A DNA stretch of 61,682 bases, taken from a bacterium (GTDB taxonomy: Bacteria; JAJVIF01; JAPKYR01). Both the position numbers and the translations under genes were made by a program. The notes beneath the pieces were generated by a model. The model was given only the letters and a program-made list of their open reading frames with translations. It was not told the origin of the DNA and ran no database searches. Positions 16,839 to 42,179 of the stretch are shown in pieces (within the stretch, counting starts at the first letter, position 1; each line of letters starts with the position of its first letter). The stretch spans positions 1 through 61,682 of the forward strand of contig JAPKYR010000193.1 of assembly GCA_026394215.1 (NCBI GenBank). The letters run 5' to 3'.

Positions 16839-16883
16839 TTTGGTCCGTGTAATTTGTGCCGCACAGCGACAGGAATATTTGTC

Positions 16884-17720
16884 ATGAATATCGAAATTGT
16901 CGAGAAAATCCTCGAGAAACACAGAAAACAGGGCGACGGTCTTATATCCATACTCGAAGAGATCCAATCGAGGTTCACCTACCTTCCTGAAGAAGCATTG
17001 AGAATGGTAGCTTCAGAAAGGAATATACCCCTGGTTAATGTCTACGGGGTGGCGACCTTTTACAGGGCATTCAGCCTGAAGCCCAGGGGGAAACATCTGA
17101 TATGCGGCTGCCTGGGAACCGCTTGCCATGTTCGGGGAGGCCCGGTAATCGTTGAGGAATTAGAGAAAAACCTTGGCGTCAAACGTGGTGAGACTACCCC
17201 TGATAAGGAATTCACATTGGAGACAGTGGCATGTCTCGGCGCCTGCGCACTTGGCCCTGTAGTCGTAGCCGACGGAAAGTACTTTCCAAAGGTGCGGAAG
17301 ACCAAAGTAAAGAACATATTAGAGCAGGTTCGCAAGGGATTCGAGGATTCGAGCGTCGAACAGGACTACCACATATTTCCTGTCGAGGTCAGCTGCCCGA
17401 ATTGCAATCACAGCCTCATGAATCCCAATCATATAATCGATCATTACCCTTCAATTCGGTTTATCGCTTCGTTCGATCAAAAACACGGTTGGATCGAATT
17501 GTCTTCAATGTACGGAAGCTACAAGGTTTTTACCGAGCATGAAATTCCATCGGACACAATCGTCCATTTCTTCTGTACCCATTGCCATGCCGAACTGACA
17601 GGCTCATCGCCGTGTCCGGCATGTAACGCCCCGATGGCCTCGATGATCGTACGCGGGGGAGGGATCATTCAGATATGTTCCCGACAGGGATGCAGAAGCC
17701 ACATGCTTGATTTAGGTTAA
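16884..17720 (+). CDS. NuoE/HydC-type thioredoxin-like [2Fe-2S] protein with a ~110-aa C-terminal Cys-rich (zinc-ribbon-like) extension
   Basis: NuoE core (ISILEEIQSRFTYLPEEA..., CGCLGTACHVRGG, TVACLGACALGPVV). The extension carries CPNC...CTHC...CPAC...CSRQGC. The likely start is the ATG at 16884 (MNIEIVEKIL). Confidence 0.8.
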   Translation: MNIEIVEKILEKHRKQGDGLISILEEIQSRFTYLPEEALRMVASERNIPLVNVYGVATFYRAFSLKPRGKHLICGCLGTACHVRGGPVIVEELEKNLGVKRGETTPDKEFTLETVACLGACALGPVVVADGKYFPKVRKTKVKNILEQVRKGFEDSSVEQDYHIFPVEVSCPNCNHSLMNPNHIIDHYPSIRFIASFDQKHGWIELSSMYGSYKVFTEHEIPSDTIVHFFCTHCHAELTGSSPCPACNAPMASMIVRGGGIIQICSRQGCRSHMLDLG

Positions 17721-17773
17721 CTGGAGTTTGAAACCAGGGTGCAAAGTTTTGAAATGCAGCTTGGAGGATTTTA

Positions 17774-20700
17774 ATGTTGAAATTATTTTCAATTGACGAT
17801 CTCAGGAATTTACGCGAAATTATCACCAGCGATATTGATATAAAAAAACCCTGCATAAATATCTGCGGTGAAACAGCTTGTCTTGCCAGCGAGGCGAATC
17901 TGATTGTCCGGGCTGCCAAAGGGCATATCCTCGGAAAGCGTTTGCACGATAAGATTTCACTGCGCATTACAGGTTGCCATGGATTCTGCGAGATGGGTCC
18001 AACCATCGTTACCGAACCGCAGAACGCATTTTACGTTAAGGTCAAGTCTGAAGATGTTCCACGGATTATCGATGCGACATTGAAGAATAAATATGTTGAT
18101 GAACTGCTGTACACAGACCCAAAATCCGGAACGAAATATTATTCGCAGAATGAAATCCCATTCTTCAAGAATCAGAAACGAACGGTATTCAGTAGAAACC
18201 AGAAAATTGATCCAATAAGAATTTATGATTATATCGCCAGCGGAGGCTACCTGGCTATCGAGAAAGTCCTCAGTGGCATGACAAGGGAACAGGTCGTCAA
18301 CGAAATAAAGAATTCAGGTCTACGAGGTCGCGGCGGAGCCGGTTTCCCGACCGGATTGAAATGGGAAATGCTGGCAAAACAGCCATCCGATGAGGGTAAA
18401 TACATAGTTTGTAACGCTGATGAGGGGGATCCCGGTGCCTATATGGACAGGAGCCTTCTTGAGGGCAACCCGCATGGAGTCATCGAGGGTATGTTAATAG
18501 GCGCATTCGCCACCGGCGCCACAAAAGCGATTGTTTATGTCCGAAATGAATACCCTATGGCGATCAAGCATCTGATTATCGCTTTAAGCCAGGCTCGGGA
18601 TCTTGGGCTCATTGGAGAAAATATTCTCGGAACCGATTTCAGCCTTGATTTTGAAGTTGTAAAGGGCGCGGGCGCGTTTGTATGCGGCGAGGAAACCGCC
18701 CTGATGAGGTCAGTCGAGGGAAAAGTGGGAGAACCGCGTCAGCGTCCTCCCTTCCCGGTTGAAAAGGGAATCTACGGCAAACCCACAGCGATTAATAACG
18801 TGGAAACATGGGCCAACATTCCCATTATTATTGAGAAAGGGGCGTCGGAGTACGCAAAGATCGGTACTAAGGGAAATTCGGGAACAAAGATTTTCAGCCT
18901 TGTGGGAAAAATCAAAAATACCGGGCTTGTCGAAGTCCCGATGGGCATTACAATCAAAAAGATTGTATATGACATCGGCGGCGGATCCATTGGGAATGCC
19001 AGGATAAAAGCAGTTCAAACTGGTGGGCCATCGGGAGGATGCATCCCGGCTGATAAGTTCGATCTACATATCGATTATGACAGTCTGGCTCAGGCGGGTT
19101 CGATCATGGGCTCAGGCGGCATGATCGTAATGGACGAAAAGACATGCATGGTCGATGTCGCCAAATATTTCATGAATTTCCTCAAGAGCGAATCCTGCGG
19201 GAAGTGTTTCACCTGTCGTAAGGGTACGCAGCGGATGTATGAGCTGCTGGATGAGATCACCAGGGGGCAGGGAACCATGGAGAAACTGGATCTCCTTGAG
19301 GAACTCGCCCTGGCCGTTAAAGATACGACAATGTGCGGGCTGGGACAGACAGCATCCAATCCAGTCTTATCAACACTTAAATATTTCCACGACGAATATG
19401 TACAGCATATTATTTACAAGAGATGTCCGGCGGGTGTCTGCACGGAACTTGTCGGGGCACCATGCCAGAACGCATGTCCGGTCGGAACAGAGGCATGGCG
19501 CTATGTCGCTCTGATTGAAAAGGGTGAATACGAGGAAGCCTATAAAGTCATCAGGGCTCCAAACCCATTCCCATCGGTATGCGCCAGAGTCTGCGATCAT
19601 AAGTGCGAAGCGAATTGCCGCCTTGGCACAACCGGCGGGCAACCGATCGCGGTAAGGGCTTTGAAGCGTTTTATCACCGATACGGTCGATCCATCCGTTT
19701 ACAATTCGGAAAAATTCATTCCCGCCGGCGAAGATTCGCGAAGGATTGCGGTTATCGGAGCGGGGCCTTCAGGGCTTACCGCAGCATATTACCTCTCTCT
19801 CGACGGATACAGGGTGTCTGTATTTGAATCCGAGGACAGGCCTGGCGGTATGCTTGCCTGCGGCATCCCGGAATACCGGCTTCCCAGAAATATTCTTGAG
19901 AAGGAAATAGACGCCCTTCTTAACGAAAATATCAAACTTGAATGCAATAAAGCCCTCGGCCGTGATTTCACGGTTGACGGTCTCTTTAAGGACGGATTCG
20001 ACGCGGTGTTCCTGTCGATGGGTGCCCATAAATCAAGGACGCTTGAATTCGGAGCAGATAGCGCACCCCATGTTTTCTCATCGATCAATTTCCTGAAAGC
20101 ATATAATCTAAGAGGCGAATTCCTTGCAAAGGGCAGGGTTGGTGTTATTGGAGGAGGCAATTCGGCGGTCGATGCGGCCAGAGCCGCCTTCCGCCAGCCG
20201 GACGTCCAGAATGTCGTCATCCTTTATCGCAGAACGATAAATGAGATGCCTGCGTATGAGGAAGAGATAAAAGCCGCTCTCGAAGAGGGCGTTGAGATCA
20301 GGGAACTTGTCACTCCGGGATCGATCTTCACACAAAACGGTAAACTTACCGGGATCGAGTGTTTCCAGAATGTCCTTGGCGATATCGACGCAAGCGGCAG
20401 ACGTCAGCCAGTTTTGAATAAAAGCAAGAAGACCCTCGTTTCTTTTGACACTCTGATTGTCGGCATTGGCGAGCATCCTGACACCGGATTCCTTAAAGAA
20501 ATGGAAATTGCGATCGATTCCGATGGCAAACCGATTATCGATCCCGATACCCTTGCCACATCCAGGGAAGGCGTGTTCGCGGGAGGCGACCTGGTCACAG
20601 GTTCCAGCACCGTTATCGGAGCTATCGCGATGGGGAAAAAGGCGGCGTTGGTAATTGGCCGGTATCTCAGAAATGAGGAACTCTGGCAGACGCCCGAAAT

Positions 20701-20944
20701 CAGGCTTCCTGATTTCTTCCTGGAACCATCCCCGGAAAGCGATGTAGAGACGGATATGGAATTACCGAGGATTGAGATACCGGAAATCCCGGTGGAATCT
20801 CGCGCCGATAATTTCAGCGAAGTTGAAAGGACGATTTCACGGGAAGCTGCCAAAGTGGAGTGCGGAAGATGTTTGCGCTGCGATCTGGCATTTACGCAGA
20901 AGCGGGAAGACGAAATAGCTGCTGTTGGTGATAAAGCGAAATGA
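17774..20944 (+). CDS. fusion protein: NuoF/HydB-type NADH-FMN-FeS subunit + GltD/NfnB-type FAD/NAD(P)H oxidoreductase
   Basis: N-terminal Trx-like 2Fe-2S domain (ITGCHGFCEMGP). NuoF core (GLRGRGGAGFPTGLKW, CNADEGDPGAYMDR, ESCGKCFTCRKG). GltD-type FeS region (CQNACPVGTEAWRY, CARVCDHKCEANCR) and Rossmann folds (RIAVIGAGPSGLTAAYYL, VGVIGGGNSAVDAA). RBS GGAGGA. 1056 aa. Confidence 0.85.
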   Translation: MLKLFSIDDLRNLREIITSDIDIKKPCINICGETACLASEANLIVRAAKGHILGKRLHDKISLRITGCHGFCEMGPTIVTEPQNAFYVKVKSEDVPRIIDATLKNKYVDELLYTDPKSGTKYYSQNEIPFFKNQKRTVFSRNQKIDPIRIYDYIASGGYLAIEKVLSGMTREQVVNEIKNSGLRGRGGAGFPTGLKWEMLAKQPSDEGKYIVCNADEGDPGAYMDRSLLEGNPHGVIEGMLIGAFATGATKAIVYVRNEYPMAIKHLIIALSQARDLGLIGENILGTDFSLDFEVVKGAGAFVCGEETALMRSVEGKVGEPRQRPPFPVEKGIYGKPTAINNVETWANIPIIIEKGASEYAKIGTKGNSGTKIFSLVGKIKNTGLVEVPMGITIKKIVYDIGGGSIGNARIKAVQTGGPSGGCIPADKFDLHIDYDSLAQAGSIMGSGGMIVMDEKTCMVDVAKYFMNFLKSESCGKCFTCRKGTQRMYELLDEITRGQGTMEKLDLLEELALAVKDTTMCGLGQTASNPVLSTLKYFHDEYVQHIIYKRCPAGVCTELVGAPCQNACPVGTEAWRYVALIEKGEYEEAYKVIRAPNPFPSVCARVCDHKCEANCRLGTTGGQPIAVRALKRFITDTVDPSVYNSEKFIPAGEDSRRIAVIGAGPSGLTAAYYLSLDGYRVSVFESEDRPGGMLACGIPEYRLPRNILEKEIDALLNENIKLECNKALGRDFTVDGLFKDGFDAVFLSMGAHKSRTLEFGADSAPHVFSSINFLKAYNLRGEFLAKGRVGVIGGGNSAVDAARAAFRQPDVQNVVILYRRTINEMPAYEEEIKAALEEGVEIRELVTPGSIFTQNGKLTGIECFQNVLGDIDASGRRQPVLNKSKKTLVSFDTLIVGIGEHPDTGFLKEMEIAIDSDGKPIIDPDTLATSREGVFAGGDLVTGSSTVIGAIAMGKKAALVIGRYLRNEELWQTPEIRLPDFFLEPSPESDVETDMELPRIEIPEIPVESRADNFSEVERTISREAAKVECGRCLRCDLAFTQKREDEIAAVGDKAK

Positions 20945-21618
20945 TTAACCTGATAATAAACGGCCTTGATGTCCACGTACCTGAAGGCTCGACTGTTCTT
21001 GAAGCCGCCAGATTTCTTGGATTTCCTATCCCCACGCTTTGCTATCTGGAGAGTCTGTCGCCATACGGCGCATGCAGGCTTTGTGTGGTGGAAATTGGAG
21101 AAGGCGCCAGGGCCAAACTCGTATCGTCCTGCACCTATCCTGCGACTGAGGGCCTTAAAGTCAGGACCTCGTCAGAGAGGGTAGTAAAAGCGAGACGAAT
21201 GGTAATAGAGCTGCTTCTTGCCACATGTCCGCAATCGAAGACCATTCAGGATCTTGCATCGGCTCATAATGTCCGCCGGCAAAGGTTCAGGCAGGAGCAC
21301 GAGGACTGCATCTTGTGCGGCCTTTGCACCCGAATGTGCGAGGAACAGATGATGGCAAAGGCAATAGGATTCAGAGGACGCGGCGAAAGTCGAAGCATCG
21401 GGACGCCGTTCGATATCGAATCCGAAGTGTGCCGTCGCTGCGGCGGATGCATGTATGTCTGCCCGGCATGCCAGTTAAGGTGCACCTTTACTAACCCCGA
21501 AAAGGCGATTTGCGGAGGGTGCGCGAATCTCGCGCCCCCCTGCGTTGAGAAAGACCAGTTTAAAGACCTTATGTGCTACATGGATCCCTGTGTGGCATGC
21601 GAAATAAAAAAGGATTGA
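20941..21618 (+). CDS. 2Fe-2S + 4Fe-4S ferredoxin-like protein (NuoG/HydA N-terminal-type)
   Basis: MINLIINGLDVHVPEGSTVLEAAR...CRLCVVEI is the plant-type 2Fe-2S N-domain of NuoG/HydA. It is followed by CILCGLCTRMC and CRRCGGCMYVCP cluster motifs. The start overlaps the upstream stop (ATGA). Confidence 0.75.
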   Translation: MINLIINGLDVHVPEGSTVLEAARFLGFPIPTLCYLESLSPYGACRLCVVEIGEGARAKLVSSCTYPATEGLKVRTSSERVVKARRMVIELLLATCPQSKTIQDLASAHNVRRQRFRQEHEDCILCGLCTRMCEEQMMAKAIGFRGRGESRSIGTPFDIESEVCRRCGGCMYVCPACQLRCTFTNPEKAICGGCANLAPPCVEKDQFKDLMCYMDPCVACEIKKD

Positions 21619-21638
21619 CAAGAATCAAGGAGATAAAG

Positions 21639-23249
21639 ATGTCGTATTCTAGAGTTAATTCCTCTGCCGCTACCCTGACTAAAAATCGTACCGAAGAATC
21701 CATTACCCCGTCGTCAGGGATGTGCGTAACCTGCGTTGACGGGTGTATAGGGATGTGTGAAATCGGTAAGTCCGCGTATCGCGGGCATGAGGTAATTTAC
21801 CCGCAGCCATTCGGGGTCATAACGACCGCAGCGGAAAAAACCTACCCTGTCGACTATTCGCATTTCAATATTATGGGCACTGCGGTTGGCGCCCATGGTA
21901 TTGAAGCCGATAGTGACAAAGCCATATTCCCGGCGGTGAACCTCGAAGTTGCCTTTGGCCACGACAAGGATATCAAATTCCGCATGCCGTTCATGATCCC
22001 GGGGATTGGCTCCACAAATATCGCCAAGAACAACTGGGAAGGTTTAGCCATCGGTACTGCACTTGCAGGAACCGGACTTACCATCGGCGAGAACGTCGTC
22101 GGGATGGACCCCCAGACGGTCATGAAAAACGGCCATGTTATAGATACTGTAGACATGAAACGCAGGGTTAAGCTGTTTATGGATCACCAGCGCGATGGTT
22201 ATGGGGCTATCATTGTCCAGGCTAACGTTGAAGATACCCGCCTGGGTGCTCAGGAATACGCAATTCAACAACTTGGTGTCAAGTGCGTCGAGCTTAAATG
22301 GGGTCAGGGCGCGAAGGACATCGGGGGCGAAGTTAAAATCGCCGACCTGAAGAAAGCGCAGCTTCTCCATGAGCGAGGCTATATCGTCCTCCCGAATCCC
22401 ACCGATCCTTACGTTATCCAGGCTTTTGAAAAGGGAGCTTTTACCGAGTTCGAACGCCATTCCAGAGTCGGCATGGTCACAGAGGAATCATTCGCTAAAA
22501 GAGTCGAGGAACTTCGAGCCGCCGGTGCTAAATACGTTTTCCTTAAGACTGGCGCTTATCGCCCCGCAGACCTTGCCCGGGCTATCAAGTTTGCCTCCAA
22601 ATATAAATTAGACCTTCTGACCGTTGACGCAGCGGGCGGCGGCACTGGCATGAGCCCCTGGCGCATGATGAATGAATGGGGTATCCCACCGGTCGAAATA
22701 CATTCGCTTTTGTATCAATACGCCAAACGTCTTCACGATGCCGGTGAATATCTTCCCGCGATCGCTGTCGCAGGCGGATTCACATTTGAGGACCTGATTT
22801 TCAAAGGGCTTGCCATGGGCGCTCCATTTGTCAAGCTTGTCGGTATGGCGCGCGGTCCTATCGCCGCTGCGATGGTCGGTAAAACCATCGGAAAAACCAT
22901 CGATGAGCATCAGGTTCCCGTGTATGTCGAGCGTTTCGGCACCACGAAGGACAAGATATTCGTCACCGCTGCGCACCTTCGAAAGGAGCTTGGCGATGCA
23001 GAATTTGAAAAACTCCCGACCGGCGCTATCGGTCTCTATACATATTATGAACGGTTGGCACAGGGCCTTCGCCAGATGATGGCCGGTAGCAGAAGATTTG
23101 CCTTAGAATATATGTCGCGGGATGATCTGGCTGCACTCACTCCACAGGCTGCCCAGATCAGCGGTATCAGGTATATCATGGATGTCGATAAGGAAGAAGT
23201 GGATAAAATACTTAATGTTGCAGCTGCACCCGTTAAAGCCAGACACTGA
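21639..23249 (+). CDS. FMN-binding glutamate synthase family protein (GltB central-domain-like, no amidotransferase domain)
   Basis: ATG at 21639 with RBS AAGGAGA. The TIM-barrel FMN signature DAAGGGTGMSPW plus IAVAGGF are as in the GltB FMN domain. N-terminal Cys cluster CVTCVDGCIGMC. Confidence 0.8.
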   Translation: MSYSRVNSSAATLTKNRTEESITPSSGMCVTCVDGCIGMCEIGKSAYRGHEVIYPQPFGVITTAAEKTYPVDYSHFNIMGTAVGAHGIEADSDKAIFPAVNLEVAFGHDKDIKFRMPFMIPGIGSTNIAKNNWEGLAIGTALAGTGLTIGENVVGMDPQTVMKNGHVIDTVDMKRRVKLFMDHQRDGYGAIIVQANVEDTRLGAQEYAIQQLGVKCVELKWGQGAKDIGGEVKIADLKKAQLLHERGYIVLPNPTDPYVIQAFEKGAFTEFERHSRVGMVTEESFAKRVEELRAAGAKYVFLKTGAYRPADLARAIKFASKYKLDLLTVDAAGGGTGMSPWRMMNEWGIPPVEIHSLLYQYAKRLHDAGEYLPAIAVAGGFTFEDLIFKGLAMGAPFVKLVGMARGPIAAAMVGKTIGKTIDEHQVPVYVERFGTTKDKIFVTAAHLRKELGDAEFEKLPTGAIGLYTYYERLAQGLRQMMAGSRRFALEYMSRDDLAALTPQAAQISGIRYIMDVDKEEVDKILNVAAAPVKARH

Positions 23250-27346: not shown

Positions 27347-28771
27347 ATGAACAACGAGATCAGAGCGAAGTATAACGAAGTTTATCTGTTACCTCCAGCA
27401 GTAGAGGAGTGGGTACCCGCAGACCATCCCGCGAGATTCATACGGCAGATTGTAGAGAGCCTGGACCTTGATGAAATGGGCTTCAAATGCCGGAAATCGG
27501 AAGTCGGGAATCCAAGTTTCTCGGCGGATCTAATGCTGAAAGCATGGCTGTACGGGTTAATGAAGGGGATTAAGAGCAGCCGGAAGATGGAGGCGGCCTG
27601 CCTTGATTCAATAGCATTGGTGTGGCTGACGGGCAACAAAGCGCCGGATCATAATACGTTCTGGCGCTTTTACCAGGACAACAAGGGCACATTCAAAACT
27701 CTGTTCAGGAAGACGGCCAGGATTGCAGTTGACAGCGGGCTGGTCGGAATGGTTCTGCACGCGGTGGACGGCACGAAAATACAGGCGCTGCCGTCGCCGG
27801 TGAGGGGACAGAGACGCGATAAACTTACGAAACTTTTAAAAGAGCTGGATGAATCGATCGACAAAATGTTTGAGGAGATGGAATCGAACGAGGCGCAGGA
27901 ATCAGGCGAGATGCGGCTTCCCGAGGAACTGCGCGATGCCGCCGTTCTGAAGCAGAGGATTGAAGAGGCGTTGCACGAGATGGACGAGGCCGGTGTGAAC
28001 CACCTTCATCCCGACGATCCCGATGCGAGAATGATAAAGCTGAAGGGGAGAGACGAATTTTGCTACAACGCGCAGGCTGTTGTCGACTCGGAAAGCGGCA
28101 TAATTGTCGCGGAGGATGTTGTGAGCGAGTGCAACGACAACGGTCTTATGAATCGCATGCTTGACGAAGTGGAGGAGAATCTGGGAGATTTGGCGATGGA
28201 ATCGGTGGCGGACGCGGGTTACTTTTCGGCGCGTGATCTTGAAGAGGCCGAGAAACGCGATCGAAATGTGCTGGTGAATATGGAGAATCTGCGCAGCGGG
28301 GACGGGGAAGGCGAGTTTCGCGCGGCAAAATTCAACTTCGATGAAGAGCGCGATTGTGTGGTCTGCCCGCTCGGACAGGACCTTCCGTTTGTCGGGACTT
28401 CGCCTGGCAACAAGGGAAGCAGGGAAGACAGATACCGGGTTTACCGCTGCAAAAAGCGCGACTGTCCCTCCCGATTGCAATGCACAAAAAACAAGCAGGG
28501 CCGTTCAATAAAAATCGGTAAACATCACGCGGCGATGGTGCGTCAAAGAGAAAAACAACGCGATTCTGAAATGCGGCGTCTTCTCGCGGCACGTAAAACT
28601 ATAGTCGAGCCGGTCTTTGGAATAATCAAAGAAGTGTTTGGCTTGAGACGATGGAGCGTGATTGGGATCGAAAAGGTCAGAGCGGTATGGTCGCTCATCT
28701 GCACCGCGTTCAATCTGAAGAAGATGTACAGGTTCTGGATCAGAGGAAAACTCAACCTCTCCGCTGGTTGA
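27347..28771 (+). CDS. IS1182-family (IS5-like DDE) transposase
   Basis: The N-terminus LLPPAVEEWVPADHPARFI and the C-terminus VEPVFGIIKEVFGLRRWSVIGIEKVRAVWSLICTAFNLKK are the hallmark IS1182/IS5 blocks. I could not define the element ends. Confidence 0.85.
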   Translation: MNNEIRAKYNEVYLLPPAVEEWVPADHPARFIRQIVESLDLDEMGFKCRKSEVGNPSFSADLMLKAWLYGLMKGIKSSRKMEAACLDSIALVWLTGNKAPDHNTFWRFYQDNKGTFKTLFRKTARIAVDSGLVGMVLHAVDGTKIQALPSPVRGQRRDKLTKLLKELDESIDKMFEEMESNEAQESGEMRLPEELRDAAVLKQRIEEALHEMDEAGVNHLHPDDPDARMIKLKGRDEFCYNAQAVVDSESGIIVAEDVVSECNDNGLMNRMLDEVEENLGDLAMESVADAGYFSARDLEEAEKRDRNVLVNMENLRSGDGEGEFRAAKFNFDEERDCVVCPLGQDLPFVGTSPGNKGSREDRYRVYRCKKRDCPSRLQCTKNKQGRSIKIGKHHAAMVRQREKQRDSEMRRLLAARKTIVEPVFGIIKEVFGLRRWSVIGIEKVRAVWSLICTAFNLKKMYRFWIRGKLNLSAG

Positions 28772-31897: not shown

Positions 31898-32845
31898 ATG
31901 TTTGATATGGTTCAGAAAAAGCAAATCTCCCCGGTTTTCAATCCAAGGAAATCGATTGTAGTCTACCATGGCGATTGTCTGGAGTTGTTAAATACAGTCC
32001 CGGAAGGATTGGTTCAGTTAATTATTACTTCACCGCCATATAATCTAGGAAAAGAATACGAAAAGAAACTGAAATTATCCCAGTATTTGGAGCAACAGGA
32101 AGCGGTGATAACTGAGTGCGTGAGGGTTTTATCGGATAACGGAAGTATCTGCTGGCAGGTTGGAAACTATGTAGACAAAGGAACCATTATCCCATTAGAC
32201 ACAGTCCTCTATCCTATATTCATAAAACTCGGTTTACAGTTACGTAACCGAATTATCTGGCATTTTGAGCATGGCCTTCATTGTTCGAAAAGGTTTTCGG
32301 GACGATATGAAACCATTATATGGTTCACAAAAAGCAATGATTATGTTTTTAACCTAGATCCGATACGGGTTCCGCAAAAGTATCCAGGCAAGAAGCATTT
32401 CAAAGGTCCGAACGCAGGGCAATTTTCATGTAACCCATTGGGGAAGAACCCAGGTGACTTATGGGTAATCCCTAATGTAAAGAGTAATCACGTCGAAAAG
32501 ACCATCCATCCCTGCCAATTCCCGGTTGAGTTAATCGAACGTTTTGTTCTCTCAATGAGTAAAGAGGCCGATTGGGTATTTGACCCGTTCCTAGGTACTG
32601 GTACTACGGCAATCGCGGCTGTAAGGCATAAACGTAAAAGTATGGGAGCTGAAATACACCAGAAATATATCGAAATTATCCATGCCAGAATCGAAAAGGA
32701 ACTTGACGGTACATTACGTACTCGCCCTATGTTTAAACCGGTTTTCAAACCGGAGGATGCAGGTTCGAGTTTAACGACAGCCCCGTGGAAAAATGCCGAT
32801 CTGGAACAGCAAGTGTCTTTGTATAAAGATAGGAAGGAAGTATAA
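31898..32845 (+). CDS. DNA methyltransferase, beta-class N4-cytosine/N6-adenine type (SPPY motif)
   Basis: Catalytic motif IV ITSPPYNLGKEY precedes the SAM motif I DPFLGTGTTAIAA, which is the beta-class order. SPPY is typical of N4-cytosine enzymes such as the BamHI and BglII methylases. Confidence 0.85.
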   Translation: MFDMVQKKQISPVFNPRKSIVVYHGDCLELLNTVPEGLVQLIITSPPYNLGKEYEKKLKLSQYLEQQEAVITECVRVLSDNGSICWQVGNYVDKGTIIPLDTVLYPIFIKLGLQLRNRIIWHFEHGLHCSKRFSGRYETIIWFTKSNDYVFNLDPIRVPQKYPGKKHFKGPNAGQFSCNPLGKNPGDLWVIPNVKSNHVEKTIHPCQFPVELIERFVLSMSKEADWVFDPFLGTGTTAIAAVRHKRKSMGAEIHQKYIEIIHARIEKELDGTLRTRPMFKPVFKPEDAGSSLTTAPWKNADLEQQVSLYKDRKEV

Positions 32846-32851
32846 AGAAAA

Positions 32852-33463
32852 TTGAAAATCATTGAGACATATTCACATCTTAATGGTCTAGAGTTCCTAC
32901 TGGTGCATAAGCCAGCATTATGGACTGAGATTCAAAACGTAATTGAAAGGGTTGATGCGAATAAATACAAAACAAAAGTATCTAAAGAAAAAACAATGCC
33001 GGGGAAGCTCCTTTACAGCCCTATAGACATGAATGCCAAGTTTAAGACCTTCCTTACAAAAGCTGAGTGGGAAGAAAGCAGGGTAGATTATTGGGTAACA
33101 AAAGATGAAAGATTAATTCGAAAAACACTTACGATGGATCCAGCTCTACAAAAGGAGGAGATTATCAAGAGCGGAAATATGCCCATTTATAGTTACAACC
33201 AGACAGATTATGTGAAAGATCGAGTAGCTATTGAAGTCCAATTTGGCAAGTATGCATTTGTAGCTTATGATCTGTTTGTCAAACACCTTGCTTTTTACAT
33301 TGGAGACAAAATAGACCTTGGAATCGAGATTTTACCGATGAAGGAACTTCAAATGAAAATGAGTTCCGGTGTGCCTTATTATGAAGGTGAATTATATAAT
33401 GTTATTCGGCAGGGTCGGGATGTGCCAGCCGTACCGTTGATCATCATAGGAATAATTCCATAG
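32852..33463 (+). CDS. type II restriction endonuclease, BglII/BamHI fold (BglII-like)
   Basis: KDRVAIEVQFGKYAFVAYDLF matches, from memory, the BglII active-site block (D...EVQF, Glu-x-Gln) rather than the BamHI E-x-E. IEILPMKEL resembles the following strand. TTG start 7 nt after the methylase stop. Confidence 0.7.
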   Translation: MKIIETYSHLNGLEFLLVHKPALWTEIQNVIERVDANKYKTKVSKEKTMPGKLLYSPIDMNAKFKTFLTKAEWEESRVDYWVTKDERLIRKTLTMDPALQKEEIIKSGNMPIYSYNQTDYVKDRVAIEVQFGKYAFVAYDLFVKHLAFYIGDKIDLGIEILPMKELQMKMSSGVPYYEGELYNVIRQGRDVPAVPLIIIGIIP

Positions 33464-33571: not shown

Positions 33572-34423
33572 TCAATGAGCCGCGAGCCATGCGTCCATTG
33601 CCTCGACGGCATCCGGTGACAGCAACATCATCATCAGTTTCATCTTCGCGGCATCTTGCTGCATATCGCCCATATGTGCGCGAATCTGCTCTTCAACACC
33701 GGCGCGGGTTTCATCATCCAGCATATTGAGCCATTCCATTCCCGGACGATCCGGGCTGAACATATCCTGTTGATCCGGACCGGGACCCATCATATTTTGC
33801 TGATTCTGATCGGGACCCATATTTTCCGGGGGATTCTGGTTATCCGGATTCATCATATCCTGCTGATTCTGACTGTCAGGACCCATCATGCCATGGCGAT
33901 CCTGCATACGTTCCCGCATGCGATCCATAAATGGCCGCCCGCCCTCGCCGCCATCGCCCCAGTCGCTCATTAACATCTGCTTTTGATCTTCATCGAGAAG
34001 CGCAAACGCACGGTCGAGTACGCCCTGAAGCTGCTCTTTGATTGCTCCGGGATCGACCTGCCCGCGTGTTTCTTCCATGATTGCCCGGAACTCGTCGCGG
34101 TTAATTTCCTCACCCGCGATTACGGAATTCAACTGATCCTCAAGAGCCTGGTGAATCCGGTCCCTTGTATCGCCGCATTGCGCATCAACAACACCTTGTG
34201 CCTCGGTAGCAAGACCCTTCAACGCTTGTACCTGATCGGCTGTCAGTTTTAATCTGTTTATTCCTTCGACCAGACGAATTTCGTTCATGATAAGCTTGAT
34301 ATTTTCATCCTGCATAAGGAATTCCATGCCGAGCATCGCCTGAGGACCCCGATCCATACCGGGTCCCATTCCCATGCCGGGTCCCATATCCGGACCGGGA
34401 CCCATACCCATGCCGGGTCCCAT
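33572..34423 (-). CDS. periplasmic Gly/Met/Pro-rich helical protein (CpxP/Spy/ZraP-like), hypothetical; the signal peptide is encoded upstream of an in-frame TGA (see finding)
   Basis: MGPGMGMGPGPDMGPGMGMGPG repeats, a helical core and a Met/Gln/Asn/Pro-rich region. The frame continues upstream through TGA 34448-34450 to ATG 34582, which has RBS GGAG and a signal peptide MKIKEKRNVSRWGLLAAAAIFIVLLVGGAIYA. Confidence 0.65.
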   Translation of the reverse strand: MGPGMGMGPGPDMGPGMGMGPGMDRGPQAMLGMEFLMQDENIKLIMNEIRLVEGINRLKLTADQVQALKGLATEAQGVVDAQCGDTRDRIHQALEDQLNSVIAGEEINRDEFRAIMEETRGQVDPGAIKEQLQGVLDRAFALLDEDQKQMLMSDWGDGGEGGRPFMDRMRERMQDRHGMMGPDSQNQQDMMNPDNQNPPENMGPDQNQQNMMGPGPDQQDMFSPDRPGMEWLNMLDDETRAGVEEQIRAHMGDMQQDAAKMKLMMMLLSPDAVEAMDAWLAAH

Positions 34424-35876: not shown

Positions 35877-36019
35877 CCGTCCCGCACAAAAAGTTTACAT
35901 AAAGCACAAACACCACAAAGCGAAATATTATAACCGGGCATCCATAATATTCAGGCGTGCCGCGATTTTTCATCCTTGCTTATTCACCGGCTTTTTTATT
36001 TATTAAGGAGATTATCAAC

Positions 36020-36526
36020 ATGGCCGACAGAGAAGATAATTTCAGCTATCGCTTATGGCGGTACGACGGGGCTCCCGGAGAATTAATCCCGCTCCTTCAG
36101 TCCGCCCAGATTCATTTCGGCTATATCCCTCGAAGGGCGATCAGCTATATCTCAAGCGTTACGGGAATTCCCGAGTCCGAGGTCTACGGCGTTACGACAT
36201 TTTACAGCCAGTTCCGCCTGCAGCCGACGGGAAAATATGTCATACGAGCCTGTGCAGGAACGGCATGCCATGTGTCCGGCTCCAAACAGATAATCGAAAC
36301 AATCGAGGACGAGCTGGGGGTCGAAGTCGGCGACACGACCAAGGACGGGCTGTTCACTCTGAATACGGTCGCATGTATCGGGTGCTGCTCTCTCTCGCCG
36401 GTAGTGGTGATAAATGACGACACTTTCGGACGCCTGACCCCCTCGAACTTACGAAAACTACTTCGCGGTTACAAGCGTCGCGAAAAATCGGCAAGTACTG
36501 CTGCACCGGTCGGGGAGAATGTTTAA
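36020..36526 (+). CDS. NuoE/HydC-type thioredoxin-like [2Fe-2S] protein
   Basis: ATG at 36020 with RBS AAGGAG. LIPLLQSAQIHFGYIP, CAGTACHVSG and TVACIGCCSLSPVV are the NuoE/24-kDa subunit motifs. Confidence 0.85.
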   Translation: MADREDNFSYRLWRYDGAPGELIPLLQSAQIHFGYIPRRAISYISSVTGIPESEVYGVTTFYSQFRLQPTGKYVIRACAGTACHVSGSKQIIETIEDELGVEVGDTTKDGLFTLNTVACIGCCSLSPVVVINDDTFGRLTPSNLRKLLRGYKRREKSASTAAPVGENV

Positions 36527-36562
36527 TTGAATCGGGTCATCAAAATACAATTGCGAAATATC

Positions 36563-36640
36563 GGGGACAGGCACGGATTTCGCCCGCGAAGAGCATTACA
36601 AGCGGGAAGTATATCACTGGCGAAATCCGAGCCAGTCCCC
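36563..36640. repeat. REPIN-like palindrome, copy 3 (between the NuoE-like and NuoF-like genes)
   Basis: GGGGACAGGCACGGATTTCGCC ... GGCGAAATCCGAGCCAGTCCCC. Pairing extends outward through GCGAAATAT/ATATTTCGC (36551-36650). Confidence 0.7.
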
Positions 36641-36678
36641 ATATTTCGCAGATAATATCATTCAGCTGGAGTTTTTCG

Positions 36679-38457
36679 ATGATAAAAGCAATTGTTGGAA
36701 TGAGCACATGCGGAATATCGGCTGGCGCGCAACAGGTTTATGACAAGCTGGACGAGCTTCATAAAAATAATCCCGAATCGTTCGAGCTTTGCCGCACCGG
36801 CTGTATCAGCATGTGCTATCGCGAACCGCTTGTCGAGGTTCGCAATAACGGCGACAGAATAATCTACGGCGACGTGACTCCTGAACTTGCAGATGAAATT
36901 TTCGCAAAGCATATCGTGGGCGGTACTGTCCTTGATGAACATGTCGCGTGCAGCATCCTTCCTGACGGGACCTTCGTTGGAGCTGAAAAAGCCTTCCACG
37001 GTCCGCAGAAAAGAATCGTCCTTCGAAACTGCGGCACGATCGATCCGGAATCCCTTGAGGAATACGAAGCGTCCGGTGGATATGTTGCGCTCCGAAAAGC
37101 CCTCCTTGAAATGAACTCCGGTGAAATAATCCAGGAAGTTAAAAATTCAGGGCTTCGTGGACGAGGCGGCGCGGGATTCCCTACAGGATTGAAATGGTCG
37201 TTCGCAGCAGGATACAAGAGCGATATTAAATACATAGTCTGCAACGCCGATGAAGGCGACCCGGGCGCGTTTATGGATCGGTCGGTTCTCGAAGGCGATC
37301 CGCATTCCGTTCTCGAAGGTATGATAATCGCCGGTAAGGCAATCGGATCTTCTTTTGGATATATCTACTGCCGAGCTGAATATCCGATGGCGATCCGGCG
37401 TCTGAATATCGCCATCGATGATGCGCGGGAAAAAGGCTACCTCGGAAAAAATATTCTAGGGTCGAGTTTCGATTTCGACGTAAAAATAAAACAGGGAGCG
37501 GGTGCGTTTGTCTGCGGCGAGGAGACCGCGCTGTTCCAATCGATCGAAGGACATCGCGGAATGCCAAGAATCAGGCCTCCATTCCCCGCTGAGAAAGGCC
37601 TGTGGCAGAAACCGACGAACAATAACAATGTCGAGACCTACGCGAACGTGCCATGGATAATCGTCAACGGCGCAGCGGCGTACTCGGCATACGGCACCGA
37701 AAAAAGCAGGGGCACCAAGGTTTTCGCGCTCGCCGGAAAAGTCCTGCATGGAGGGCTTGCCGAAGTCCCGATGGGCACCACAATCAACGACCTTGTTTTC
37801 AAAGTCGGCGGGGGAATAAAGAACGGCAAGAAATTCAAGGCGGTGCAGATGGGAGGACCGTCCGGAGGCTGCATCCCGTCCGAACTTGGCAATACGCCAG
37901 TCGATTTCGAGTCGATCCCCGCTACCGGCGCGATCATGGGTTCCGGCGGAATGGTCGTGATGGATGAAACGACCTGCATGGTGGAGATCGCGCGGTTTTT
38001 CCTCAATTTCACACAGGACGAATCGTGCGGCAAATGTACTTTCTGCAGAGTCGGCACATTGCGTATGCTTGAAATCCTGACACGCATTACCCATGGAGAG
38101 GGCGAGCCGGAGGACCTGGATAAACTTCTGGAACTTGGAAAACATATCAAGGACGCAAGCCTTTGCGGACTTGGCCAGACCGCTCCGAATCCGGTATTGA
38201 CGACGATCCGTTACTACCGCGACGAGTATCTTGCTCACATTATCGATAAAAAATGCCCGGCCGGAAGCTGCTCGGCTCTCGTCGATTTCTTTATCAATCC
38301 CGACAAATGCACCGGATGCACGATCTGTGCGAAAAATTGTCCGGTTGATGCAATCGCGGGTGAAGCGAAAAAAGTCCATGTTATAAACAACGAAATCTGC
38401 GCGAAGTGCGGGAAATGCGTGACAGTCTGCAATTTCGACGCAGTTTATAAGAAGTGA
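36679..38457 (+). CDS. NuoF/HydB-type NADH-FMN-FeS subunit (bifurcating-enzyme type, with N-terminal 2Fe-2S and C-terminal 2x[4Fe-4S] domains)
   Basis: GLRGRGGAGFPTGLKW, CNADEGDPGAFMDR and ESCGKCTFCRVG form the NuoF core. C-terminal CTGCTICAKNCP...CAKCGKCVTVCN ferredoxin domain. N-terminal Trx-like CISMCYREP. Confidence 0.9.
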   Translation: MIKAIVGMSTCGISAGAQQVYDKLDELHKNNPESFELCRTGCISMCYREPLVEVRNNGDRIIYGDVTPELADEIFAKHIVGGTVLDEHVACSILPDGTFVGAEKAFHGPQKRIVLRNCGTIDPESLEEYEASGGYVALRKALLEMNSGEIIQEVKNSGLRGRGGAGFPTGLKWSFAAGYKSDIKYIVCNADEGDPGAFMDRSVLEGDPHSVLEGMIIAGKAIGSSFGYIYCRAEYPMAIRRLNIAIDDAREKGYLGKNILGSSFDFDVKIKQGAGAFVCGEETALFQSIEGHRGMPRIRPPFPAEKGLWQKPTNNNNVETYANVPWIIVNGAAAYSAYGTEKSRGTKVFALAGKVLHGGLAEVPMGTTINDLVFKVGGGIKNGKKFKAVQMGGPSGGCIPSELGNTPVDFESIPATGAIMGSGGMVVMDETTCMVEIARFFLNFTQDESCGKCTFCRVGTLRMLEILTRITHGEGEPEDLDKLLELGKHIKDASLCGLGQTAPNPVLTTIRYYRDEYLAHIIDKKCPAGSCSALVDFFINPDKCTGCTICAKNCPVDAIAGEAKKVHVINNEICAKCGKCVTVCNFDAVYKK

Positions 38458-41400
38458 GAATCAAATCAATGGATAACTTAACCGATAAAATAAAATTAAA
38501 AATAAACGGACAGGAAATCGAATGCGCTCCGGGGAAAACAATCCTGGAAGTCGTACGCGAAAATAACCTGGACGATATTCCCACACTCTGCAATTCGGTA
38601 GAGCTTGACCCATACGCTTCATGTTTTGTTTGCGTAGTTGAAGTAAAGGGACGCCCGATTCTCGTCCCGTCATGCGCGACAAGGGTCGCGAACGGTATGG
38701 AGGTCGAGACACGAAATGAGCGGATTATCGCGTCCAGAAAAACCGCATTCGAGCTTCTGATCTCAAACCACTACGCCGACTGCGTGTCGCCATGCCTCGA
38801 AGGATGCCCGGCACACACGGACATTCAGGGCTATATCGCGCTCTCCGCAATGGGGCAGTACGAAAAAGCGGTCAATCTGATCCGTGAATATAATCCGCTT
38901 CCGGCAATATGCGGACGTGTCTGCGTTCGAAAATGCGAGCTGAACTGCCGTCGATGCGATATTGACGCGCCTGTCGGGATCAATTGGATAAAGAGATTCG
39001 TGATCGACATCCCCGGCATGTACGATCAGACGCCTGTATGCGACCCACCCACCGGAAAAACGGTTGGAATCGTGGGTGCCGGCCCAGCGGGATTGACCGC
39101 GGCATGGTTCCTTGCGAGAAAAGGCCACAAGCCGATTTTATACGAAGCCAATGAAAAAGCCGGGGGCATGCTGCGATACGGAATTCCAACGTACAGGCTT
39201 CCCGACGATGTTCTCGATCAGGAAGTGGACTTCATTTGCAGAGTCGGAGCAGAAATTAAATATGATGTGAAAGTCGGGAAAGATATTTCGGTTGACGAAC
39301 TCATGAAAAAGCACGACGCGGTTTTCCTCGCGACGGGCGCATGGGCCGGAAAGCCGATGAAGATCAAGGGCGAGTTCGATACCGAAGGGATAGTCACGGG
39401 AGTGGATTTCCTTCCGAAAATGGCCGCCAATCCTGAAAAATTAACTGGAACAGTTGTCGTTGTCGGAGGCGGGAACACGGCGATGGATGTCGCGCGCACC
39501 GCATGGCGACTGGGCGCAGACAAGGTTATTATCCTTTATCGCCGCACCAAAGATGAAATGCCCGCGGACGCGATGGAAATCCGGGATTTCCTTGAGGAGG
39601 GCATCGAGTTAATCGAATTGGCCGCACCGGTCGGGATCATTTCCGAAAATGGAAAAATCAAGGCCTTGCGATGCCAGCGGATGAAACTTGGCGAACCGGA
39701 CAGTTCCGGACGTCGCCGCCCGGTTCCGCTCGAAGGCTCTGAGTTCGACCTTCCATGCCAGCTTGCGGTCTCCGCTATCGGACAGGATCCCATTCTCGAA
39801 GGGTTAACCGAAAATATCAAAGGCCAGACCCTTCAACTGACAAAATGGAACACTATTGTCGTCGATAAAAATTCCCTTGCCACAAATATCACGGGGTTGT
39901 TCGCAGGTGGAGACGCCGCCGACGACGGCCCGACTGTGGCGATCGACGCAATCGCCGATGGAAAGCAGGCTGCGGCGGCTATCGACGCATATCTGAATGG
40001 TAAAGAAATTCCGAAACGGCCGTTTATTGTGCATAAGGATTTCTGGAGCAGGCCGGAAGCGGCACTGAGCGACGTCAAGGAAAGCCCCCGTCACGAAATC
40101 CACATGATGGATGTTGAGGACAGGCGGGGAAATTTCCGCGAAGTGGCTGTCGGTTTCGAATACGAGGATAACATCCACGAATGCGACCGATGCCTCTCGT
40201 GCGGGTGCATCAGGTTCGATGACTGCGCCTTAAGGCTCGGTGCCGAAAAATACGGCGTCGATATGAATAAGTACAAGGGTTACATTCGCCGCCACAAAGT
40301 CGATGATCGCCACCCTTATATTATTTACGATCCGAACAAGTGCATTCTATGCGCCCGATGTATAAGGACCTGCGCGAGGGTGCTTCCGATTTCCGCTCTC
40401 GGGCTTGTCGGCAGGGGTTTCAAAACTGAGATGCGCCCCGCTATGAACGACCCACTTGTCGAGACCAGTTGCGTAGCCTGTGGTAACTGCGTCGATACAT
40501 GCCCGACAGCCGCGTTGACAATAAAATATCCGTTCCCCGGCCGCGCGTGCCTTGAGACTGAAGACATCCACACATACTGCGGATTCTGCTCGCTCGCATG
40601 CCCGATCACAGTGAAGAAATTCGGCGACAACCGCTATTTTATCGGGCCGTCGGGCGTTCCAGGAGAATATCTGTGCAGATATGGACGATTCGGTACCGAA
40701 CTATTTATCAAGAAAAGGCGGATTACCGCTCCGATTCTCCGCGAAGGCAATGCAAGGCAGACTGTCGAGCTTCCAATCGCGTTAATCGAAACTGCATCCG
40801 GATTGAAGAGGATCGCGCATAAATATGGCGCGGATCATGTCGGCGTTTTCGTTTCCCCGGAACTCACAAACGAGGAATTATATCTTGCCGGAAAAATCGC
40901 GCGAGAAGGCCTCGGCACAAACAACATCGCGTCTCTATCCGTGCTTGGAACCGGCAACCGCGCAGGGGCGCTTGACAAATCGTTTGGATTTACCGCCTCG
41001 ACATCGGATAGATCATTCATCGATGGCGCGGATTTAATTATCTGCAACAACACGTCGATGGAGTCCGATCACCTGATACTCGCGGTCGATATCATCCAGG
41101 CTGTCAAGGCTGGGGCGAAAATGATCGTCTCCAATTCGACTCTTGATAAAGCCGACCAGCTTTTATCGACGCTCGCTATGGACCCCATGCGCGGTCGCGC
41201 CGCGATTTTATGGAACGGCATCATGCAGGTACTCCTTGACGATGGTTTCATCAGTCAGGACATTCTCAAATCCATTCCCGGAGCTTCGGAATTTCTAGCA
41301 GGCAGGGATTTTGGACTTAAAAATGTGTCCGCACTTTCAGGAATCGATGCTGCTGAAATAAGTGCTGCCGCTGACATTATCAGAAATGCGAAGAAGATCG

Positions 41401-42179
41401 TATTTATTCACAGCACCGACCGCACTCAGGATCATGCTCCCGGTGATATCGAGACGCTTGCCAATTTCGTTGTCCTGCTAAGGGCTGCGGGAATCGAAGC
41501 TGATCTCCTTATGCCAAGGTTGATTTCCAACAGCGCCGGACTTGAGATCATGGGCGCCGACCCCGCATTCGCGGCGGGAAAAACACCGGTCCCGGAAAAG
41601 CTTCAAGGCGCAAGATCGCACGAAGAGCTGATCAAATTGCTTAATGACGGCGAAATCCGCTCGGCATTGATAATCGGCGAAGACCCTATGGCGTGGGGAA
41701 ACACCGGAACATGGTTCAGGAACATCGAATTCCTTGCGGCCATGGACTGGACGTCGAGCGAAACCACACAATTCGCGGATGTTGTCCTGCCCGGCTCTAC
41801 GTACCTTGAAACAAAGGGCACGCGATGCAATTTCGAGGGCAGGGTCATCGAATTCGAGCAGGCTGTCGAACCTCCCGCCGAAATTTCAGGAAGAGAAATT
41901 CTTCAAAGACTTGCCAATGAATTCGGGATAAAAGTCAAGGACGATATCACTTCCGAAATCAGTGGAATAGTAAATATTAATATGGGAGATTTACTCGGTT
42001 TCTACTGGAATACGGGTCAGAAGCGGAAGTCCCCGTCTGTCGCGGGGCTTGTATCGACCAGCACTGATGTAAAGACCACATCTATCCAGCTTCCACTCAC
42101 TCATGGCGAGCAGTATAAGAGAGAGATACGCGAAGTCGGCACAGACCATTATCGTGTCCAGGCGGGTTTGGCACGGTAA
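38454..42179 (+). CDS. multidomain FeS flavoprotein: NuoG/HydA-type 2Fe-2S N-domain + GltD/NfnB-type FAD/NAD(P)H reductase + 4Fe-4S domains + non-catalytic molybdopterin-oxidoreductase-like domain
   Basis: KLKINGQEIECAPGKTILEV...CFVCVVEV (2Fe-2S). CLEGCPAHTDIQGY...CGRVCVRKCELNCR and VGIVGAGPAGLTAAWFL, VVVGGGNTAMD (GltD-like). CILCARCIRTC, CVACGNCVDTCP. The MGD-type cluster CGFCSLACP...LCRYGRF. The segment aligned to the Fdh active site reads GTNNIASLSVLGTGNRAG, with no Cys or Sec. GTG at 38454 overlaps the upstream stop; ATG at 38469 is an alternative start. Confidence 0.8.
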   Translation: MRIKSMDNLTDKIKLKINGQEIECAPGKTILEVVRENNLDDIPTLCNSVELDPYASCFVCVVEVKGRPILVPSCATRVANGMEVETRNERIIASRKTAFELLISNHYADCVSPCLEGCPAHTDIQGYIALSAMGQYEKAVNLIREYNPLPAICGRVCVRKCELNCRRCDIDAPVGINWIKRFVIDIPGMYDQTPVCDPPTGKTVGIVGAGPAGLTAAWFLARKGHKPILYEANEKAGGMLRYGIPTYRLPDDVLDQEVDFICRVGAEIKYDVKVGKDISVDELMKKHDAVFLATGAWAGKPMKIKGEFDTEGIVTGVDFLPKMAANPEKLTGTVVVVGGGNTAMDVARTAWRLGADKVIILYRRTKDEMPADAMEIRDFLEEGIELIELAAPVGIISENGKIKALRCQRMKLGEPDSSGRRRPVPLEGSEFDLPCQLAVSAIGQDPILEGLTENIKGQTLQLTKWNTIVVDKNSLATNITGLFAGGDAADDGPTVAIDAIADGKQAAAAIDAYLNGKEIPKRPFIVHKDFWSRPEAALSDVKESPRHEIHMMDVEDRRGNFREVAVGFEYEDNIHECDRCLSCGCIRFDDCALRLGAEKYGVDMNKYKGYIRRHKVDDRHPYIIYDPNKCILCARCIRTCARVLPISALGLVGRGFKTEMRPAMNDPLVETSCVACGNCVDTCPTAALTIKYPFPGRACLETEDIHTYCGFCSLACPITVKKFGDNRYFIGPSGVPGEYLCRYGRFGTELFIKKRRITAPILREGNARQTVELPIALIETASGLKRIAHKYGADHVGVFVSPELTNEELYLAGKIAREGLGTNNIASLSVLGTGNRAGALDKSFGFTASTSDRSFIDGADLIICNNTSMESDHLILAVDIIQAVKAGAKMIVSNSTLDKADQLLSTLAMDPMRGRAAILWNGIMQVLLDDGFISQDILKSIPGASEFLAGRDFGLKNVSALSGIDAAEISAAADIIRNAKKIVFIHSTDRTQDHAPGDIETLANFVVLLRAAGIEADLLMPRLISNSAGLEIMGADPAFAAGKTPVPEKLQGARSHEELIKLLNDGEIRSALIIGEDPMAWGNTGTWFRNIEFLAAMDWTSSETTQFADVVLPGSTYLETKGTRCNFEGRVIEFEQAVEPPAEISGREILQRLANEFGIKVKDDITSEISGIVNINMGDLLGFYWNTGQKRKSPSVAGLVSTSTDVKTTSIQLPLTHGEQYKREIREVGTDHYRVQAGLAR

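Follow-up and report, generated by a model that had tools for sequence, protein, structure and literature searches.

The StnABC/NfnABC enzyme balances NADH, NADPH and ferredoxin in anaerobes. Here we analyze a three-gene cassette that very probably encodes such a complex, an Nfn-type, type 1 member of the BfuABC family. It lies on a stretch of 61,682 nucleotides (hereafter the window) that is a complete contig (JAPKYR010000193.1) of a bacterial metagenome-assembled genome (MAG; GCA_026394215.1). The closest described systems are StnABC of Sporomusa ovata (8OH5/8OH9; Kremp 2020, Kumar 2023), NfnABC of Caldicellulosiruptor saccharolyticus, also called Nfn-Bfu (9BOV/9BP5; Li 2025), and their archaeal relatives NsoABC of Thermococcus litoralis and Nfn-BfuABC of T. 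sibiricus (9N5U). The 128-kDa StnC of S. ovata was annotated as a GltD/NuoG-like protein plus a formate dehydrogenase (Fdh), and an assay for formate oxidation found no activity (Kremp 2020; PMC7483475). The 2023 cryo-electron microscopy study by Kumar et al. divided StnC into a hydrogenase-like [2Fe-2S] part (residues 1-101), a GltD fold (102-565) and an FdhF-like part (683-1172). The two [4Fe-4S] clusters of the FdhF-like part lie off the main electron path; the domain mediates tetramer formation, and its deletion, or mutation of its Cys ligands, prevented correct assembly. In the C. saccharolyticus enzyme the pterin site is incomplete, no pterin density was seen and the A2-A4-A5 branch is a dead end (Li 2025). 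In StnC and the C. saccharolyticus NfnA, the FdhF-like domain is described as catalytically inactive, with two dead-end [4Fe-4S] clusters, and as needed for tetramer assembly (PMC10482914, PMC11829005). According to the study of the archaeal enzyme, Nqo3 and FdsA, which do not bifurcate, carry an additional beta-barrel at the C-terminus that NfnA is without (PMC12018979).

The three open reading frames (ORFs) of the cassette are confirmed on the forward strand and encode a NuoE-like protein, a HydB-type NuoF and a large fusion subunit of 1241 amino acids (aa). When all PDB chains were searched, the best matches of all three subunits were found among StnABC (8OH5), NfnABC (9BOV/9BP5) and the archaeal Nfn-Bfu (9N5U). 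Chance similarity is excluded because the E-values to the solved homologs are 1e-244 for the large subunit, 1.6e-256 for the NuoF-like and 4.5e-51 for the NuoE-like subunit. The large subunit aligns to C. saccharolyticus NfnA (9BOV_A, 1178 aa; E 9.5e-245) in one stretch covering query residues 13-1161, and to S. ovata StnC (8OH5_C, 1172 aa) with an E-value of 1.3e-224. Counted over the aligned parts only, with the chains of both solved enzymes rebuilt from the printed PDB alignments, its identity is 40% to NfnA over 1134 aa and 43% to StnC over 860 aa. The Stn clusters of Kremp et al. comprise homologs of 955-1241 aa at 37-49% identity (PMC7483475); the window protein falls within this range and therefore sits squarely in the family. 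The enzyme of this locus is an ortholog, itself uncharacterised, within a family that is known and whose structure is solved, and it has the canonical architecture of that family.

From its N- to its C-terminus, the large subunit is made of a HydA/NuoG-type [2Fe-2S] domain, a GltD/NfnL-like FAD/NADPH domain, a NuoG-type iron-sulfur (FeS) region and an Fdh-like domain (Table 1). Its cluster ligands were read from an alignment of the window protein, 119 homologs and the rebuilt C. saccharolyticus and S. ovata sequences. Cys46, 57, 60 and 74 of the [2Fe-2S] domain match C36, C47, C50 and C64 of both solved enzymes and are 99% conserved among the homologs. The GltD-like domain, which is alignable to 9BOV_A, 8OH5_C and the NfnB chain 4YLF_B, holds two [4Fe-4S] clusters with the ligands Cys110, 114, 118, 157, 161, 165 and Lys180, an FAD motif (GAGPAGL at 208) and two NADPH motifs (GGGNTAMD, of the GxGxxA type, at 338 and YRRT at 362). 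The ligands of the NuoG-type region (Cys580, 583, 585 and 591; His620; Cys630, 633, 636 and 640; Cys673, 676, 679 and 683) are all common to both solved enzymes and invariant in the homologs. A further [4Fe-4S] site at Cys709, 712, 716 and 741 belongs to the Fdh-like domain, the motif CGFCSLACP being residues 709-717. In all, 26 cysteines, Lys180 and one histidine are common to both solved enzymes and invariant or 99% conserved in the homologs. These 28 ligands fit one [2Fe-2S] and six [4Fe-4S] clusters, as in the structures, and from the sequence we infer the allotment of each cysteine to a particular cluster. Lys180 corresponds to K170 of the two solved enzymes, the family-specific ligand of the FAD-proximal cluster, which is strictly conserved in StnC sequences and essential by mutagenesis.

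The NuoE-like subunit carries one thioredoxin-like [2Fe-2S] cluster (Cys78, 83, 119 and 123), and its best PDB matches are 9N5U_C, 9BOV_C and 8OH5_A. The NuoF-like subunit is 62.5% identical to StnB of S. ovata and 60.3% to NfnB of C. saccharolyticus. Pfam and NCBIfam find Complex1_51K, NADH_4Fe-4S and a C-terminal 4Fe-4S dicluster domain in it. The hallmarks of BfuB were checked by residue-level alignment to 8OH5_B, 9BOV_B and 9N5U_B together with the positions of motifs and cysteines. They include an N-terminal thioredoxin-like segment (Cys11, 42 and 46), the FMN/NADH site GLRGRGGAGFP at 158, which has the same letters as loop 1 of C. saccharolyticus NfnB, conserved ligands of the B1 [4Fe-4S] cluster (Cys450, 453, 456 and 496), a conserved Zn-type Cys3His linker (H..CP..SC, 519-531) and a C-terminal 2x[4Fe-4S] ferredoxin-like domain with eight conserved cysteines (Cys544-584). 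The StnB/NfnB chains (bit scores 856/820/814) rank above the hydrogenase HydB chains (751-626), in an order of scores rather than a phylogeny. The original prediction had given the coordinates and domain order of the three genes, a HydBC-type NuoE/NuoF core with extra N-terminal and C-terminal FeS domains on NuoF, a giant ORF laid out as 2Fe-2S domain, GltD-like reductase, His/Cys and 2x[4Fe-4S] motifs, CGFCSLACP and molybdopterin-like domain, and a "Stn-like" system built on this HydA-N/GltD/Fdh-like fusion subunit. All of this was borne out by the ORF list, the Pfam hidden Markov models, the alignments and the PDB matches.

The window matches StnABC of S. ovata in its three genes and their order, in the domain order of the large subunit and in the lysine ligand. 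It differs in coming from another phylum-level lineage, represented by an uncultivated MAG, and in its non-acetogen context; the window protein has Ile124 in place of Cys114 and about 65 more residues in its Fdh-like part, and the cassette has a dedicated upstream response regulator. NfnABC of C. saccharolyticus, which provides the best full-length match of the large subunit, shares the identical NADH loop, the incomplete pterin site and the dead-end A4/A5 branch; in that enzyme the B5 site holds Zn by three Cys and one Glu. The systems of T. sibiricus and T. litoralis belong to the same family and share its BfuBC core, and 9N5U_C is the closest solved chain to the NuoE-like subunit. The archaeal large subunit, however, is a monomeric protein of 963 aa with one cluster fewer in its Fdh-like domain, whereas the window protein keeps a full bacterial-type Fdh-like domain with all four cysteines of that cluster. 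Classical NfnAB/NfnSL carries out the same overall reaction and has a homologous GltD/NfnL-like domain (E 1e-90 to T. maritima NfnB, 4YLF_B), but in Stn/NfnABC bifurcation does not take place at the FAD, and the FAD-proximal cluster has a Lys instead of a Glu. The electron-bifurcating hydrogenases HydABC and the NAD+-dependent formate dehydrogenases FdsABG resemble the cassette in their NuoE/NuoF-type core, their NuoG/HydA-type FeS domains and a C-terminal Fdh fold; unlike them, the window protein is without an H-cluster domain, a Mo/W ligand and the barrel, and has a GltD-like domain inserted instead.

Three other known families were rejected as identities for the cassette. For the classical NfnAB/NfnSL, no NfnA-like gene occurs anywhere in the window, and a Lys stands in place of the NfnB Glu ligand. 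For the [FeFe] hydrogenase HydABC, there is no Pfam match to the hydrogenase large domain, and FeFe_hydrog_A6 fits only the FeS part of the large subunit (residues 579-691). For the glutamate synthase GltBD, the GltD-family models all score under their cut-offs and the cassette has no GltB gene.

The C-terminal domain of the large subunit raises the question of a functional NAD(P)+-linked or bifurcating Mo/W formate dehydrogenase, similar to FdsABG or Fdh-Bfu, in which this domain is catalytic. Partial matches to PF00384 and TIGR01591 favour it, many homologs are named "formate dehydrogenase major subunit" by JGI, and the top Foldseek matches are true formate dehydrogenases with template modeling (TM) scores of about 0.8. 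The Foldseek scores, from 0.72 to 0.80 for Fdh enzymes, 9BOV_A and 8OH5_C alike, confirm an Fdh-like (Mo-bisPGD) fold but do not tell a true Fdh from a degenerate NfnA/StnC domain; that the domain is non-catalytic is judged from its ligand position and from the lack of the barrel. At the ligand position, Cys386-His387 of R. capsulatus FdsA aligns to Gly832-Thr833 (nt 40947-40952) within SVLGTGNR (residues 829-836), and the C. saccharolyticus and S. ovata proteins are likewise without the Cys/Sec-His pair. As for the barrel, Pfam finds no match to Molydop_binding (PF01568, the domain IV beta-barrel) in the large subunit; the alignment to E. coli FdhH ends at its residue 501 of 715, leaving 72 query residues against 214 in FdhH. 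An AlphaFold2 (AF2) model of residues 700-1241, with a predicted local distance difference test (pLDDT) score of 83 and a predicted TM score of 0.86, finishes with helices and a disordered tail instead of a barrel. The TIGR01591 model for the Fdh alpha subunit scores 187 bits, far under its cut-off of 666. Given also that the homologous StnC showed no formate activity and NfnA no pterin density, an active formate dehydrogenase is exceedingly improbable.

The absence of the Mo ligand and of the C-terminal barrel had been noticed in the original prediction and is supported by these data. It had gone on to propose a new, extended variant of Stn that had gained a Mo-less molybdopterin-like domain, and this part was not borne out. 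The large subunit is indeed about 65 aa longer than StnC and NfnA, and its Fdh-like part has diverged, being 29% identical to C. saccharolyticus NfnA as against 48% in the N-terminal 560 aa. Nevertheless, StnC residues 683-1172 and the C-terminal part of NfnA are this same domain, the alignment to 9BOV_A runs on to query residue 1161, and StnC homologs of up to 1241 aa are already listed by Kremp 2020. Characterised close homologs of identical architecture were looked for and found, and their solved structures (8OH5, 9BOV) refute a gained domain, to which we accord next to no probability. A canonical StnABC/NfnABC might still serve in the cell as a non-bifurcating NADPH:acceptor oxidoreductase for the reduction of sulfur, polysulfide or metals, the last as in SfrAB-like proteins with GltD and Fdh-like parts, its NuoEF part being an NADH entry only. 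The first assays of its close relative NsoABC treated it as an NADPH-dependent sulfur oxidoreductase, StnC is weakly similar to Geobacter SfrA/SfrB, and the Cys changes that this clade shows close to the FAD-proximal cluster could affect how the enzyme behaves. Bifurcation has, however, been seen in every member tested for it (S. ovata, C. saccharolyticus and T. sibiricus), and Nso itself has been proposed in the literature to be really an Nfn. We therefore regard a non-bifurcating role as quite unlikely, if less so than the two preceding explanations.

Several observations weigh against the assignment to StnABC/NfnABC. Cys114 of the solved enzymes has been implicated as an alternate contact of the FAD-proximal cluster, and its exchange for Ala (C114A) cost 50% of the activity; the position is Ile, Ala or Val in the clade of the window protein. 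This clade has invariant cysteines of its own (Cys153, 435, 864 and 1125) that are absent from the solved enzymes. The low identity of the Fdh-like part also counts here, as does the fact that by fold alone this domain is at least as like a genuine Fdh as it is like NfnA/StnC. Finally, activity, its direction and the oligomeric state are assigned to the window protein and its clade by homology, not biochemistry, and the in vitro activity originally described for the related Nso was a different one.

A mechanism for the StnABC/NfnABC of the window can be carried over from the solved homologs and mapped to its conserved residues (PMC10482914, PMC11829005, PMC12018979, PMC7483475). NADP(H) would bind at the FAD of the GltD/NfnL-like domain. 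Single electrons would pass from the Lys180-ligated [4Fe-4S] cluster beside the FAD, through the NuoG-type clusters, to the [4Fe-4S] cluster beside the FMN in the NuoF-like subunit. There, the FMN and the neighbouring clusters of the NuoF-like and NuoE-like subunits are predicted to split electron pairs between NAD+, by hydride transfer at the FMN, and ferredoxin, reached through the mobile NuoE [2Fe-2S] cluster and the pair of [4Fe-4S] clusters in the C-terminal domain of NuoF. In vivo the reaction would most likely run in reverse, with NADH, reduced ferredoxin and 2 NADP+ giving 2 NADPH for biosynthesis in a fermentative anaerobe. The Mo-less Fdh-like domain would hold a dead-end branch of clusters and would have a role in folding and oligomer assembly, not in catalysis.

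The positions of the cassette, the domains of its large subunit and the adjoining features are given in Table 1. The start of the NuoE-like ORF had been placed at the ATG at 36020; an AAGGAG motif lies 8 nt 5' of it and supports this choice over a GTG at 35957. For the large subunit two starts are possible. With the GTG at 38454, which lies across the NuoF stop codon, the protein has 1241 aa, as had been predicted; this overlap is not certain, since the NCBI model of the same contig, which lists the protein as "FAD-dependent oxidoreductase [bacterium]", starts at an ATG at 38469 and gives 1236 aa. The domain content of the large subunit is unaffected by the choice. Scans for promoters and terminators around the operon found sites no more commonly than in shuffled sequence (11 versus 10.5 and 8 versus 11.2), and an Rfam scan of the whole window returned no match.

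Table 1. Features of the StnABC/NfnABC locus in the window
Feature	Position	Strand	Evidence
Response regulator, 331 aa	34881..35876	+	Pfam Response_reg, residues 5-119
stnA / nfnC (BfuC), NuoE/HydC-like, 168 aa, 18.4 kDa	36020..36526	+	PF01257, E 4.8e-50
Palindromic repeat of ~100 nt, long hairpin, in the stnA-stnB gap	36551..36651	.	Inverted repeat
stnB / nfnB (BfuB), HydB-type NuoF, 592 aa, 63.8 kDa	36679..38457	+	Pfam, NCBIfam
stnC / nfnA (BfuA), large fusion subunit, 1241 aa, 135.5 kDa	38454..42179	+	PDB matches
Fer2_4, HydA/NuoG-type [2Fe-2S] domain, residues 11-88	38484..38717	+	Pfam
GltD/NfnL-like FAD/NADPH domain, residues ~110-518	38781..40007	+	Fer4_20 (110-186), Pyr_redox_2 (204-503)
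NuoG-type FeS region, residues 575-700	40176..40553	+	Fer4_Nqo3 (621-689)
Fdh-like (Mo-bisPGD fold) domain	40554..42179	+	PF00384 (residues 756-1143)

The large subunit has at least 7996 homologs at E<=1e-50, a number that possibly includes matches to parts of the query and that we do not take as the size of the family. Its 120 best homologs, which share its Pfam layout, have lengths of 1156-1246 aa and identities of 63-81%. A genome scan found 121 related stretches, 80 of which provided the counts of loci given here. The labels of these relatives' MAGs include Krumholzibacteriota, Fermentibacterota (Aegiribacteria, Sabulitectum), Eisenbacteria, Planctomycetota, Elusimicrobia, Acidobacteria and Verrucomicrobiota. 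Published surveys of Stn/NfnABC cover Firmicutes, Proteobacteria, Synergistetes, Bacteroidetes and Euryarchaeota; the relatives therefore extend the range of the family, not its kind. The order NuoE, NuoF, large subunit is kept in every one of the 69 related loci with enough upstream sequence.

A response regulator gene lies directly 5' of the stn genes on the same strand, as in the window, in 69 of 69 loci with enough upstream DNA, with a median gap of 100 nt and an identity of 35-76%. The regulator belongs to a family of 845 proteins of about 328-331 aa that combine a receiver domain with Lrp/AsnC-type RAM domains. The C-terminal part of the window protein gives a weak AsnC_trans_reg match, its homologs carry PF00072 and PF01037, and the phospho-acceptor pocket (D9, D10, D58, T86 and K108) is invariant. 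The AF2 model of the regulator is of low confidence (pLDDT 61), too poor to search by fold, and was used for its secondary structure alone; it consists of a receiver and two beta-alpha-beta-beta-alpha-beta units of the RAM/ACT-like type, with no DNA-binding fold. In S. ovata, stn adjoins Wood-Ljungdahl genes between metVF and pabAB, and no regulator is mentioned there. In this clade the regulator gene accompanies the cassette as a conserved partner; it is not reported for the characterised Stn/NfnABC operons. The transhydrogenase could be hard-wired to this protein, which could act directly on the complex under phosphorylation and metabolite control, or even be a fourth subunit. We consider this doubtful; if true, it would be the earliest example described of an electron-bifurcating enzyme that is switched by a signal. 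In a weaker form of the idea, Stn and a second redox module of the window, described below, may be a coordinated pair.

Other neighbours recur among the relatives. A histidine kinase and a sigma-54 regulator follow the large subunit in about 48 of 55 loci (for example L003:11733-15076), and 29 loci have a classical NfnA-like gene before the response regulator (for example L019:2146-4478), paired with an NfnB-like gene where examined. Both types of transhydrogenase therefore stand side by side in these relatives. At the corresponding positions the window has neither the kinase/sigma-54 pair nor an NfnA-like gene.

The second NuoEF-GltD module of the window, which had also been predicted, is present at 16854-23249 on the forward strand and is built differently. 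It is made up of a NuoE that has a Cys-rich extension at its C-terminus, a NuoF of 1056 aa fused to a GltD/NfnL-like domain where the ferredoxin-like domain would be, a HydA-N/HoxU-like FeS protein of 225 aa, and a 558-aa weakly GltB/Glu_synthase-like protein (21573-23249) with no PDB or NCBIfam match. The identities to the Stn parts are 44%, 57% and 38%. The fused NuoF-GltD arrangement was not found among the solved structures or the literature searched, and this module is possibly more unusual than the Stn cassette. Among the 43 related loci whose downstream sequence exceeds 7 kb, just two (L056 and L059) have the modules near each other, the second one lying about 6.7 kb 3' of stnC. It is plausible, as was suggested before, that two such modules reflect specialised NADH/NADPH/ferredoxin wiring. 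A histidine kinase and a sigma-54 regulator at 12934-16061 precede the second module. This pair was compared with the one that follows stnC in the relatives, but orthology is not claimed, the likeness being at the level of the family only (about 34% identity).

Between the two redox modules lie a DDE transposase and a type II restriction-modification pair (an N6/N4 methylase and a BglII-like endonuclease), at 27347-28771 and 31898-33463. The presence of transposase and restriction-modification genes suggests an insertion or rearrangement relative to genomes in which the modules are closer. The palindrome in the stnA-stnB gap folds with a minimum free energy of -56.8 kcal/mol (z = -6.3); a second copy lies at 1452-1529, both copies are intergenic, and the element is absent from the 80 related loci and without an Rfam match. 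An operon-specific regulatory RNA is ruled out by the second copy in an unrelated intergenic region and by the absence from the 80 loci. The palindrome is a genome-specific element resembling repetitive extragenic palindromes (REP) or miniature inverted-repeat transposable elements (MITE), not a conserved part of the system. The reverse strand at 33572-34423 encodes a low-complexity protein of 283 aa that is rich in Met, Gly, Pro, Asp and Gln, has repeated MGPG motifs, and gave no Pfam match and no homolog in the related loci.

The architecture, cofactors and mechanism of this enzyme and its inactive Fdh-like domain are all already published with structures, and the locus adds little to them. 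What is modestly new is the cassette in uncultivated lineages, the upstream regulator in all 69 testable loci and the differently built second module; as leads, only the conserved regulator and the differently built module have some novelty. Stn/NfnABC is now also known from MAGs that bear the labels Krumholzibacteriota, Fermentibacterota, Eisenbacteria, Planctomycetota, Elusimicrobia and others, and the conserved regulator offers a testable approach to the control of such enzymes. The names "FAD-dependent oxidoreductase" (NCBI) and "formate dehydrogenase major subunit" (JGI) could mislead metabolic reconstructions of candidate phyla: formate metabolism may be wrongly inferred, and a link from ferredoxin and NADH to NADPH may be missed.

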